In this document: piece by piece, positions 11,388 to 16,263 of the stretch
How positions within the stretch are numbered: position 1 is the stretch's first letter
Layout: the number at the start of each line of letters is the position of its first letter
Sequence record: OY726582
Source: Escherichia phage vB_Eco_NicPhage
DNA: 64,000 bases
Direction: 5' to 3' (one strand)
Notes under the pieces: model-generated
Told to the model about the DNA's origin: nothing
What the model saw: only the letters and a program-made list of their open reading frames with translations
The model's database searches: none
Translations under genes and position numbers: made by a program

Positions 11388-12956
11388 ATGACTACTATCA
11401 AAACTAAAGCTCAGCTCGTAGACAAATGGAAAGAACTGCTGGAAGGTGAAGGCCTGCCGGAAATCGCTAATAGCAAGCAGGCTATTATCGCTAAAATCTT
11501 CGAAAACCAGGAAAAAGATTTCGAAGTATCCCCTGAATATAAAGACGAGAAAATCGCTCAGGCATTTGGTTCTTTCTTGACCGAAGCTGAAATTGGTGGT
11601 GACCATGGTTATAATGCTCAGAACATCGCAGCAGGTCAAACCTCTGGTGCAGTAACCCAAATTGGGCCGGCAGTTATGGGTATGGTTCGTCGTGCTATTC
11701 CTAATCTAATCGCTTTTGATATTTGTGGTGTTCAGCCTATGAACAGCCCGACCGGTCAGGTATTTGCTCTCCGTGCAGTATATGGTAAAGACCCTATCGC
11801 TGCTGGCGCTAAAGAAGCTTTCCATCCGATGTATGCCCCAGACGCGATGTTCTCTGGTCAGGGTGCTGCTAAGAAATTCCCAGCTCTGGCTGCTGACACT
11901 ACTACTGTTGTAGGTGATATCTATACTCACTTCTTCCAAGAAACTGGTACTGTATATCTGCAAGCTTCTGCTGTCGTAACACTTGATTCTGGTGCAACTG
12001 ATGCAGCTAAATTAGATGCAGAAGTTAAGAAACAAATGGAAGCTGGTGCACTGGTAGAAATCGCTGAAGGTATGGCTACTTCTATCGCTGAACTCCAGGA
12101 AGGTTTCAACGGTTCTACCGATAACCCATGGAATGAAATGGGCTTCCGTATCGATAAACAAGTTATCGAAGCTAAATCTCGCCAGCTGAAAGCTGCTTAC
12201 TCTATCGAATTAGCACAAGACCTCCGTGCAGTACACGGTATGGATGCTGATGCTGAACTGAGCGGTATTCTGGCTACAGAAATTATGCTAGAAATCAACC
12301 GTGAAGTTGTTGATTGGATTAACTACTCAGCACAGGTTGGTAAATCTGGTATGACCCTGACTCCGGGTTCTAAAGCTGGTGTATTTGACTTCCAGGACCC
12401 GATTGATATCCGTGGTGCTCGTTGGGCCGGTGAAAGCTTTAAATCTCTGTTGTTCCAGATTGATAAAGAAGCAGTTGAAATTGCTCGTCAAACCGGTCGT
12501 GGTGAAGGTAACTTCATTATCGCTTCCCGTAACGTAGTTAACGTACTGGCTTCAGTTGATACTGGTATTTCTTACGCTGCACAGGGCCTGGCTTCTGGTT
12601 TTAATACCGACACTACTAAGTCTGTATTTGCCGGTGTACTTGGTGGTAAATACCGCGTATACATCGACCAGTATGCTAAACAGGATTACTTCACCGTTGG
12701 TTACAAAGGCGCTAACGAAATGGATGCAGGTATTTACTATGCTCCTTACGTTGCACTTACCCCGCTGCGTGGTTCCGATCCTAAGAACTTCCAGCCGGTA
12801 ATGGGCTTTAAAACTCGTTACGGTATCGGTGTTAACCCGTTTGCTGAAAGTTCCCTGCAGGCTCCAGGTGCTCGCATCCAGTCCGGTATGCCATCTATCC
12901 TGAACAGCCTTGGTAAGAACGCTTACTTCCGCCGTGTATATGTAAAAGGCATCTAA
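11388..12956 (+). CDS. 23: major capsid protein gp23
   Basis: 522-aa ORF highly similar to remembered T4 gp23 (for example LLEGEGLPEIANSKQAIIAKIFENQEKDF). Confidence 0.97.
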   Translation: MTTIKTKAQLVDKWKELLEGEGLPEIANSKQAIIAKIFENQEKDFEVSPEYKDEKIAQAFGSFLTEAEIGGDHGYNAQNIAAGQTSGAVTQIGPAVMGMVRRAIPNLIAFDICGVQPMNSPTGQVFALRAVYGKDPIAAGAKEAFHPMYAPDAMFSGQGAAKKFPALAADTTTVVGDIYTHFFQETGTVYLQASAVVTLDSGATDAAKLDAEVKKQMEAGALVEIAEGMATSIAELQEGFNGSTDNPWNEMGFRIDKQVIEAKSRQLKAAYSIELAQDLRAVHGMDADAELSGILATEIMLEINREVVDWINYSAQVGKSGMTLTPGSKAGVFDFQDPIDIRGARWAGESFKSLLFQIDKEAVEIARQTGRGEGNFIIASRNVVNVLASVDTGISYAAQGLASGFNTDTTKSVFAGVLGGKYRVYIDQYAKQDYFTVGYKGANEMDAGIYYAPYVALTPLRGSDPKNFQPVMGFKTRYGIGVNPFAESSLQAPGARIQSGMPSILNSLGKNAYFRRVYVKGI

Positions 12957-12980
12957 TCTTAATTGATTAAATCTTATTTT

Positions 12981-13004
12981 GGGAGACTTCGGTCTCCCAT
13001 TTTT
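12981..13004 (+). terminator. intrinsic terminator after gene 23 (GGGAGAC-UUCG-GUCUCCC plus U-run)
   Basis: 7-bp GC-rich stem with UUCG tetraloop followed by ATTTTT. Confidence 0.75.
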
Positions 13005-13008
13005 GGTT

Positions 13009-13278
13009 TTATTTCTGTGCAATTTCGATGTAAGTTTTCAAAATATTTTGCCAATTAGGCATACCTTCTTGGACATATGCCGGAGAACCATCTTTGTTTT
13101 TGAATGATGCAAGTTTATCAGTGGCCCAATAACCTTTAGCTCGAGCTTCAGAATCAACTTTCATCCATACTTTGTTGAAGGCATTACCATTAACTTTTGC
13201 ACCATATTTTTCTACTAACTTAACTGCTTCAGCTTCCAGAACTTTTAAAGTATCTCGTAAGAAACGTGCTTTAGTCAT
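13009..13278 (-). CDS. hypothetical protein, orphan early gene between capsid genes 23 and 24
   Basis: 89-aa ORF with GAGGAG ribosome-binding site and its own sigma70-like promoter upstream; no recognisable domain. Confidence 0.55.
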   Translation of the reverse strand: MTKARFLRDTLKVLEAEAVKLVEKYGAKVNGNAFNKVWMKVDSEARAKGYWATDKLASFKNKDGSPAYVQEGMPNWQNILKTYIEIAQK

Positions 13279-13308
13279 TTTGTTTACTCCTCTGTAGTTG
13301 ATAAGTCT

Positions 13309-13338
13309 ATAGTATCACATACTAAATACGTTGTAAAC
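13309..13338 (-). promoter_or_regulatory. early sigma70-like promoter (-35 GTTTAC, 18-nt spacer, -10 TACTAT)
   Basis: Minus-strand GTTTAC...TGATACTATAGAC about 25 nt upstream of the 13278 ATG. Confidence 0.55.
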
Positions 13339-13344
13339 AATCTT

Positions 13345-13352
13345 TATAAATA
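13345..13352 (+). promoter_or_regulatory. late promoter TATAAATA upstream of gene 24
   Basis: Exact TATAAATA 28 nt upstream of the gene 24 ATG. Confidence 0.6.
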
Positions 13353-13379: not shown

Positions 13380-14663
13380 ATGAGTAAAATCCAAAAATTA
13401 TTGCGTGAATCTACAACGTCTACTAGCAACTCAATTGGTCGCCCAAATCTCGTTGCTTTGACTCGCGCTACGACTAAATTAGTATATTCTGACATTGTAG
13501 CAACACAAAGAACTAATCAACCTGTTGCTGCTTTTTATGGTATCAAATATCTTAACCCAGATAATGAATTTACATTTAAAACTGGTGCTACTTATGCTGG
13601 CGAAGTTGGATATGTAGACCGAGAAAAAATTACTGAACTCACAGAAGAATCAAAAGTCACACTAAATAAAGGTGATTTTTTCAAATATAATAATATCGTC
13701 TATAAAGTGTTAGAAGATACACCATTTGCAGATATTCAAGAAAGTGATCTAGAATTAGCTCTTCAGATTGCAGTCGTTCATTTAAAGGTACGGTTATTTT
13801 CAGATGCAGCGGTAACAAGCAAATTTGAAAGCTCTGATAGCGAAATTTCTGATGCAAGATTCCAGATTAATAAATGGCAAACTTCAGTCAAATCTCGTAA
13901 ACTTAAAACTGGCCTCACGGTTGAATTAGCGCAAGATTTGGAAGCGAATGGATTTGATGCCCCTAACTTCTTAGAAGATTTGCTTGCTACTGAAATGGCT
14001 GATGAAATTAATAAAGATATTCTTCAGTCTTTAATTACTGTATCGAAACGTTATAAAGTTACTGGAATTACTGACACCGGATTTATTGACTTGAGCTATG
14101 CATCCGCTCCAGAAGCAGGTCGTTCATTATATCGAATGGTGTGTGAAATGGTATCACACATTCAAAAAGAGACAACTTATACTGCAACGTTTTGTGTAGC
14201 CTCAGCTCGTGCAGCTGCTATTCTTGCTGCTTCTGGTTGGTTAAAACATAAGCCAGAAGATGACAAGTATCTTTCACAAAATGCTTATGGATTCTTGGCA
14301 AATGGATTACCTCTTTACTGCGATACCAACAGTCCGTTAGATTATGTTATTGTGGGTGTTGTAGAAAATATCGGCGAAAAAGAAATTGTAGGGTCCATCT
14401 TTTATGCTCCATACACTGAAGGAGTAGATTTAGATGACCCGGAACATGTCGGTGCATTTAAAGTTGTAGTTGATCCGGAAAGTTTGCAACCGTCTATCGG
14501 ATTATTGGTTAGATATGCTTTATCAGCAAATCCTTACACAGTAGCAAAAGACGAAAAAGAAGCGAGAATAATTGATGGTGGGGACATGGATAAAATGGCA
14601 GGACGTTCAGACTTGTCTGTTTTACTCGGTGTTAAATTGCCTAAAATTATTATAGATGAATAA
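13380..14663 (+). CDS. 24: capsid vertex protein gp24
   Basis: 427-aa ORF (T4 gp24 is 427 aa); gp23-paralogous fold expected; synteny. Confidence 0.9.
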   Translation: MSKIQKLLRESTTSTSNSIGRPNLVALTRATTKLVYSDIVATQRTNQPVAAFYGIKYLNPDNEFTFKTGATYAGEVGYVDREKITELTEESKVTLNKGDFFKYNNIVYKVLEDTPFADIQESDLELALQIAVVHLKVRLFSDAAVTSKFESSDSEISDARFQINKWQTSVKSRKLKTGLTVELAQDLEANGFDAPNFLEDLLATEMADEINKDILQSLITVSKRYKVTGITDTGFIDLSYASAPEAGRSLYRMVCEMVSHIQKETTYTATFCVASARAAAILAASGWLKHKPEDDKYLSQNAYGFLANGLPLYCDTNSPLDYVIVGVVENIGEKEIVGSIFYAPYTEGVDLDDPEHVGAFKVVVDPESLQPSIGLLVRYALSANPYTVAKDEKEARIIDGGDMDKMAGRSDLSVLLGVKLPKIIIDE

Positions 14664-16066: not shown

Positions 16067-16263
16067 TTCTTCACCTTTTTGTTAATCAAACGTTTACGGT
16101 ATACAACTTTTTCTTTTGCTTTAAACTTTGACCGAGCTGTCTCGGCTTTAGTCCATAGTAATCCAACTTCTTTAGGTTGTAAACCAATTTTTTGAGCAAT
16201 TTCTACGAATGAAAATCCCGCCTCATGTAATGTATAAACTTCAACTTCAGCTCTCATAATCAA
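16063..16263 (-). CDS. hypothetical small basic protein (T4 24.3-like position)
   Basis: 66-aa ORF; 4-nt overlap with the downstream gene. Confidence 0.5.
   Translation of the reverse strand: MIMRAEVEVYTLHEAGFSFVEIAQKIGLQPKEVGLLWTKAETARSKFKAKEKVVYRKRLINKKVKK

Follow-up and report, generated by a model that had tools for sequence, protein, structure and literature searches.

The small minus-strand open reading frame (ORF) between the capsid genes 23 and 24 of this phage is best explained as a monocistronic early accessory gene of Mosigvirus, the product of which would act as a stoichiometric binder; for this statement as a whole we estimate a probability of around 0.6. The two parts of it are not equally firm. 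It is highly probable that the locus is a real, early-promoted accessory gene. The role of the protein, i.e. that it from the first minutes of infection binds a host macromolecule or nucleic acid and modulates host takeover or competition, and not virion assembly, is a tentative suggestion to which we would give slightly less than half of our confidence. The course of events that we propose is that a sigma-70 promoter of the T4 early type, placed back to back with the late promoter of gene 24, would drive a short leader, a strong ribosome binding site and the ORF, and that the unit would end just before the terminator hairpin of gene 23. The small basic protein would then bind its host target stoichiometrically early in infection, and the binding would modulate host takeover or competition. 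The gene would also be exchanged between phages, sometimes as a two-gene cassette together with a SegD-like homing endonuclease.

By the window we mean the whole stretch of 64,000 nucleotides that was analysed; the region shares 99.9% identity with phages of Mosigvirus (RB69-like T-even), for instance p000y, mar005P1 and moha. A plus-strand head module with the genes 20-67-68-21-22-23, in the same order as in T4, precedes the ORF. After it comes gene 24, also on the plus strand, followed by a minus-strand group of rnlB, 24.2, 24.3, hoc and inh. The features of the locus are as follows.

11388..12956, plus strand: gene 23, major capsid protein, the convergent flank (ORF list and annotation of near-identical phages)
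12980..13004, plus strand: intrinsic terminator of gene 23, GGGAGAC-ttcg-GTCTCCC followed by a T-run, with the hairpin at 12980-12999 (scan)
13009..13278, minus strand: the 89-aa ORF, a small basic protein with an ATG start (ORF list)
13287..13292, minus strand: Shine-Dalgarno sequence GAGGAG, 8 nt 5' of the ATG at 13278 (read from the sequence)
13309..13338, minus strand: predicted T4-type early (sigma-70) promoter (scan, footprint over nine loci and pattern enrichment)
13345..13352, plus strand: late promoter of gene 24, TATAAATA (read from the sequence)
13380..14663, plus strand: gene 24, capsid vertex protein, the divergent flank (ORF list, annotation and tblastn)

The 89-aa frame, its GAGGAG site, a promoter at 13309-13338 and the gene 23 hairpin had been described in an earlier note on this DNA, and all four are present at these positions. 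The GGAG core of the ribosome binding site is kept at the equivalent position in all T4-like orthologous loci. The hairpin, which is conserved in most of the orthologous loci, serves both convergent genes as a 3' hairpin, and lies 9 nt past the stop codon of the ORF. On the ORF strand of the window it is followed by AAAATAAG, without any U-run, so that only for gene 23 does it form a canonical intrinsic terminator. For the same reason the 3' end of the ORF transcript is uncertain. The orthologue in phage VR20 has a T-run on the ORF strand after the hairpin. On the other side, the 101-bp intergenic region between the ORF and gene 24 contains two divergent promoters back to back, with only 6 bp between the early -35 box and the late promoter of gene 24. 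The complement of the latter, TATTTATA(A)A, is invariant in nine of nine aligned loci.

The early promoter consists of a -35 box, GTTTACA (13338-13332), a spacer of 17 nt and an extended -10 box, TGaTACTAT (13317-13309), which would place the start of transcription near 13302 and give the messenger a predicted 5' leader of about 23 nt. A generic sigma-70 scan is not significant on its own, with 2 sites found versus 1.9 expected. The pattern GTTTAC-N17-19-TAnnnT has 13 matches in the 64-kb window, versus 3.4 expected, a number that was not reached in any of 100 shuffles, and all 13 are on the minus strand. The other 12 (at 16155, 28569, 29379, 36297, 36741, 40325, 42452, 43857, 45041, 51969, 55267 and 55420) probably show where the early promoters lie in this portion of the genome, and several of them share the extended consensus GTTTACAA...GTGATACTAT with the promoter of the ORF. 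The upstream regions of eight orthologues of the ORF and of T4 segD, together nine divergent loci, were also aligned as a footprint, and the -35 box and a TGnTAnTAT -10 box are conserved across all nine, with a 17-nt spacer that is essentially randomised between them. The orthologous site in RB69 was predicted as the early promoter Pe:109605 (109555-109605, minus strand) by Nolan et al. 2006 (PMC1524935, Additional file 3), with a score of 29.9 bits in a range from 4.9 to 40.3 among 58 sites (PMC1524935). The GTTTAC -35 box, the TAnnnT -10 box with an upstream TG, the position and the orientation are all those of an early promoter, and judged by its sequence the site belongs to the phage's own early class. 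The 89-aa ORF would accordingly be expressed early in this phage. Together the footprint, the 13 minus-strand matches and Pe:109605 bear out the view, put forward in the earlier note, of a separately promoted early-strand gene inside the late head block. The literature on Mosigvirus and RB69 transcriptomes, searched also by gene name, yielded no functional, transcript, proteomic or genetic data for the ORF.

The ORF is named "hypothetical" in all database entries, which come from about 240 phage genomes. With tblastn its protein is found in 239 phage records, about 120 of them at 80% identity or more, all Mosigvirus, and the other 119 at less than 60%. It matches PHROG 6003, which has no assigned function, over its whole length (E=2.1e-45, residues 1-89 against profile positions 1-90 of 90). 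In RB69 the orthologue is RB69ORF188c/RB69ORF189c (NP_861878, NP_861879), in the same family and behind the same promoter, Pe:109605, and the annotation of PhAPEC2 uses the name RB69ORF188c. PhAPEC2 and the BASEL phage ChristianSchoenbein (MZ501056) are among the Mosigvirus phages that carry the same allele as the window. Distant copies occupy the same slot on the same strand in Gaprivervirus VR20 and in Dhakavirus QL01 and 04086, as well as in the metagenomic T4-like contigs L006, L008, L011 and L013, so that the order gene 23, ORF, gene 24 holds in at least three genera (Mosigvirus, Dhakavirus and Gaprivervirus) and in unclassified relatives. The copy in L006 (P0006, 4001-4273), a phage protein of 90 aa, has been given the JGI name "NADPH-dependent curcumin reductase CurA", an evident mis-annotation.

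For the pairs of copies that are not saturated, dN/dS is 0.14 (QL01 and 04086), 0.25 (QL01 and L013) and 0.11 (04086 and L013), ratios that show purifying selection on the 89-aa ORF. Together with the same confident fold in two divergent alleles, these values of 0.11-0.25 exclude a chance ORF. The earlier note had left room for a frame that is non-conserved in close relatives and has no coding signature; the ORF is in fact kept in its relatives and has such a signature. At the same time it evolves much faster than its neighbours: when the Dhakavirus, Gaprivervirus and unclassified loci are compared with the window at the amino-acid level, the ORF is 29-35% identical, versus 83-90% for gp23 and 67-70% for gp24. 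The composition is native: the GC content is 35.2%, where the window as a whole has 38.1% and gene 24 has 36.6%, and the GC3 is 23.3% versus 22.7% in gene 24. This composition and the synteny across genera rule out a recent foreign origin. With some 240 records, native GC and GC3 and the same slot in distant copies, the gene is neither an orphan, as it had been called, nor a compositionally foreign moron. We read the sequences as those of a non-core, exchangeable accessory gene that evolves fast and has long resided in the 23/24 slot within the clade of Mosigvirus, Dhakavirus and Gaprivervirus.

What is left of the earlier description as a moron-type gene is the promoter of its own and the patchy, accessory family in unrelated phages; the recent acquisition falls with the native composition and the occupation of one slot in at least three genera. 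Like a lambdoid moron, the gene is an autonomous unit between late structural genes, is present in some related phages and absent from others, and has a family spread over unrelated phages. Unlike lambdoid morons, it has a typical composition, is ancient and is syntenic across genera, is expressed, as its promoter suggests, early in the lytic cycle and not from a prophage, and in the window has no terminator with a U-run of its own. A better comparison is with the novel ORFs of Nolan et al. (PMC1524935), which likewise are small, lack a T4 orthologue, have native GC and a predicted early promoter of their own, and for which it was explicitly argued that the small novel ORFs of T4-like phages are not morons of the lambdoid type (PMC1524935). 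About 90% of those are, however, clustered among early and middle genes and co-oriented with their neighbours (PMC1524935), whereas the ORF in the window stands alone and antisense in the late head block.

The ORF encodes a soluble and cysteine-free protein of 10 kDa, with a pI of 9.6, a net charge of +5.5 and no catalytic motif. Given this small size and the lack of a catalytic motif, stoichiometric binding is a more reasonable mode of action than catalysis, and since the protein is basic, its partner would more likely be a nucleic acid or an acidic protein, and a mechanism of the DNA-mimic kind is disfavoured. An AlphaFold2 model (pLDDT 89, pTM 0.76) predicts helices at residues 3-25, 31-48 and 76-88, and strands at 56-60 and 66-70 that form a β-hairpin (56-70). 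The Dhaka-type allele, which is 33% identical, has the same predicted topology (pLDDT 93.5). All three subfamilies of the protein are hydrophilic, and 11 of 12 tested members have a clearly basic character, with a pI of 9.2-9.9 and a net charge from +3 to +7.6; only P0021 departs from this, with a pI of 8.0 and a charge of about +1. Cysteine is absent from all tested members except one. The residues M1, K3, F6, G31, N32, N35 and Q70 are invariant across all subfamilies, and a G-N-x-x-N motif caps helix 2.

Remote homology searches and structure prediction, which had been proposed as a check, gave this confident fold and no characterised relative. No Pfam family scores above threshold, in agreement with the earlier statement that there is no recognisable domain, and there is no significant match in NCBIfam, PADLOC or to a PDB sequence profile. 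The sub-threshold Pfam match to DUF4859 (17.9 bits vs a cutoff of 22.6) is a chance match, since it falls below the cutoff and is seen in only one of 12 family members. Foldseek against PDB gave no informative neighbour (best E 0.49), and the fold search against BFVD returned only the ORF's own family. A winged-helix fold was not recovered either; the Foldseek matches of that kind were only the ORC2 winged-helix domain, the DnaD N-terminal domain and MarR-like proteins, at a probability of at most 0.18 and a TM of at most 0.27.

The family is small. An exhaustive HMMER search of 1.84 billion representatives returned nine matches, which after the removal of three false ones (see below) are all of this family, and word-indexed searches gave 27 clusters in all. 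A third subfamily, of 83-88 aa (P0021, P0023 and P0067-72), is found outside the T4-like phages, where its members sit in long same-strand arrays of small genes in the Acinetobacter phage ABPH49 (Vequintavirinae) and in similar contigs of up to about 140 kb. The same subfamily is also found in the replication/nin region of a phage contig of about 46 kb, between a primase-polymerase gene and genes of the Ead/Ea22 and NinX types. In a novel, distantly T4-like contig (L012, 3724-4259) the homologue has a place other than the 23/24 slot, namely at the head of a cluster of early type, and the next gene after it is spackle-like and has a near-consensus early promoter of its own. From these homologues in early, accessory and replication regions it follows that the function of the ORF is not tied to the capsid genes. 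Three of the nine HMMER matches were rejected. P0022 (E=1e-15) and P0024 (E=5e-7) are giant repeat proteins in which each repeat scores at most 12 bits, with individual E-values above 1e4, and both are spurious because the significance arises only from the summing of near-identical Ig-like repeats, a case that calls for caution in profile searches with short queries. P0020 is an assembly chimera on a 701-bp contig.

The comparison of the 23-24 junction across T4-like phages, another check that had been proposed, gave five states of the slot.

Empty, with a gap of 83-85 bp: Tequatrovirus RB32 and Karamvirus EnC15
segD alone, on the minus strand: T4
ORF alone, Mosig-type allele: the window and contig L011
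ORF alone, Dhaka-type allele: VR20, QL01 and contig L013
Dhaka-type ORF together with a SegD-like endonuclease: Mosigvirus LF82-9 and AV116, Tequatrovirus F2 and JK45, Dhakavirus 04086

In RB32 and EnC15 the late promoter is retained and the early promoter is lost. Given that there are empty slots and yet synteny in three genera, an old residence with later loss or replacement fits at least as well as insertion. In addition to the empty slots there are two broken copies. The frame of the RB69 reference (L018 5292-5532) is split into ORF189c and ORF188c by two indels (+1 and -1), which are accompanied by clustered substitutions, whereas the window has the intact 89-aa form of most Mosigvirus genomes, and in phage mogra (L024 301-569) the frame is split by the loss of 1 nt in an A5 run. 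These copies are either natural null alleles or sequencing errors. As the one in mogra is a homopolymer indel and the RB69 record is an old Sanger sequence, we do not take them as proof of dispensability, but together with the empty slots they hint that the 89-aa ORF may be dispensable.

The cassette has an identical geometry in the three genera where it occurs, with the ORF followed, after 3 nt and on the same strand, by a GIY-YIG gene (L014 1471-2400 in LF82-9; L019, L020 and L021; L003 3001-3950). The endonuclease is 57.5% identical to T4 SegD, and about 38 records have an endonuclease that is at least 80% identical. A comparison of the window with LF82-9 is especially clear: gp24 is 97.9% identical and the ORF only 32%. 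When LF82-9 is set beside 12980-13345 of the window, it is the same upstream, with one mismatch, as far as the GAGGAG; there the Dhaka-type allele begins, and the two sequences rejoin at the terminator hairpin. Replacement in LF82-9 seems to have taken in the whole ORF allele together with the endonuclease, and the pattern is what one would expect from homing with co-conversion of a non-homologous neighbour.

T4 segD resembles the ORF in its slot, its strand and its upstream promoter region. It differs in that SegD is a nuclease of 223 aa, unrelated to the 89-aa protein, and some phages carry both genes in tandem; a homology of the ORF to SegD was tried and rejected (hhalign probability 1.2%). 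The flanks of segD in T4 are near-identical to those of the ORF in L013, including a promoter remnant, so that in T4 it is segD that lies behind the promoter by which the ORF is driven in other phages. Upstream of segD (L017 7234-7315, minus strand) there is an ATTTACA-17-TATTAT that abuts the complement of the late promoter of gene 24. According to a review of the T4 mobile elements no promoter specific for segD could be identified (PMC2988022), and this site is a candidate that may be the missing one. Omics data from T4 class segD as an early RNA and a middle protein, and the SegD protein has been detected (PMC9697503 supplements). The early RNA of segD is the best evidence, by analogy and indirect, for early minus-strand transcription of the slot.

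A role for the 89-aa protein in anti-defence, which the earlier note had raised, is possible but unsupported. In its specific form, where the protein is a dedicated factor that inhibits a bacterial immune system early in infection and the two divergent allele classes reflect an arms race, we consider it unlikely, although a good deal of what has been described is in line with it: the early class of the promoter, a divergence far above that of the flanks, alongside purifying selection inside both allele classes, the patchy distribution with spread to unrelated phage families, and the replacement of alleles in near-identical backbones, as for the window and LF82-9 (gp24 98%, ORF 32%). The allele swap is, on the other hand, fully accounted for by hitch-hiking with the homing endonuclease. 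Inhibitors such as Ocr and Arn are acidic DNA mimics, and the protein is basic. It does not match any solved structure, published anti-defence proteins included; among the known anti-defence proteins with solved structures there was no similarity in sequence or fold to a characterised inhibitor, and the literature gave no experimental link. A more far-reaching version, which we find improbable, is that this is a new family of small basic early proteins, common to T-even, Vequintavirinae-like and smaller phages, that hits a conserved host process or immune system, and that alleles of about 32% identity would differ in specificity and be swapped between genera by the SegD-like endonuclease. If that were true, a homing endonuclease would be a vehicle for the exchange of counter-defence alleles.

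It is very unlikely that the ORF is instead a partner of the homing endonuclease, i.e. a part of a seg-type mobile cassette that aids homing or regulates or protects against the endonuclease. The cassette of identical geometry in Mosigvirus, Tequatrovirus and Dhakavirus, with its roughly 38 records of an endonuclease at 80% identity or more, and the presence of T4 segD in the same slot behind the same promoter would agree with such a partnership. Most genomes with the ORF have no endonuclease there, however (for example the window, VR20, QL01, L006, L008, L011 and L013), T4 has segD without the ORF, and at the loci L005, L010, L022 and L023 outside the T4-like phages no annotated or Pfam-recognisable endonuclease adjoins the homologue. 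The lack of sequence relationship between the ORF and SegD (hhalign probability 1.2%) also speaks against it.

The locus could also act at the level of RNA or DNA, with the ORF being secondary. Late expression would then be tuned in one of two ways: early antisense ("anti-late") transcripts would run into gene 23, or the abutting early promoter would occupy the late promoter of gene 24. The invariant arrangement with the early -35 box 6 bp from TATAAATA invites this thought, read-through antisense to gene 23 is plausible as there is no U-run on the ORF strand, and T4 keeps the promoter though the ORF is missing. But the strong purifying selection acts on a protein, with a confident fold that is conserved, homologues occur in contexts without capsid genes, and RB32 and EnC15 have lost the early promoter and yet exist as isolated phages, so that we give this explanation hardly any credence. 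A factor in head morphogenesis, for instance a chaperone or regulator of gp23 or gp24 in prohead assembly, is equally hard to believe in, even if the g23-g24 synteny is strict in at least three genera and there is a weak, non-significant PHROG match to an internal virion protein (E=0.09), since the promoter is of the early and not the late class, late promoters were found only 5' of conserved late-gene orthologues in five T4-like genomes including RB69 (PMC1524935), the ORF is absent from Tequatrovirus phages with about 95% identical gp24, and the homologues elsewhere sit in early or replication regions.

As an early accessory gene with a binding product, the ORF alone would be just another uncharacterised member of the small early ORFs of T-even phages, and parts of what we describe are already known, as the ORF is annotated as hypothetical in hundreds of genomes and the promoter was predicted in 2006. 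The value of the locus lies in the 23/24 slot, which is compact and well delimited and occurs in five states in otherwise near-identical backbones. It is a natural experiment, both for the role of the protein and for how homing endonucleases move neighbouring accessory genes between genera. The most interesting by-products of the analysis are the five-state slot, the endonuclease-linked replacement of alleles across genera, and the candidate promoter of T4 segD.

Two minor observations concern gene 24. The gp24 of the window shares about 95% identity with its counterpart in many Tequatrovirus phages, with 520 records at 95-99%, but only 67-70% with that of the Dhakavirus, Gaprivervirus and unclassified loci, where gp23 is at 83-90%. 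As far as a comparison of sequences can tell, this suggests that Mosigvirus and Tequatrovirus have exchanged head genes in a mosaic manner around the 23/24 slot. Finally, gene 24 is present as two tandem paralogues (vertex protein I and II) in Gaprivervirus, in Dhakavirus and in two unclassified T4-like contigs (L001 330-2894, L002 336-2899, L006 1337-3901 and L008 1338-3897), and as a single gene in the window, in T4 and in the Mosigvirus loci that were examined (PhAPEC2, RB69 and LF82-9).
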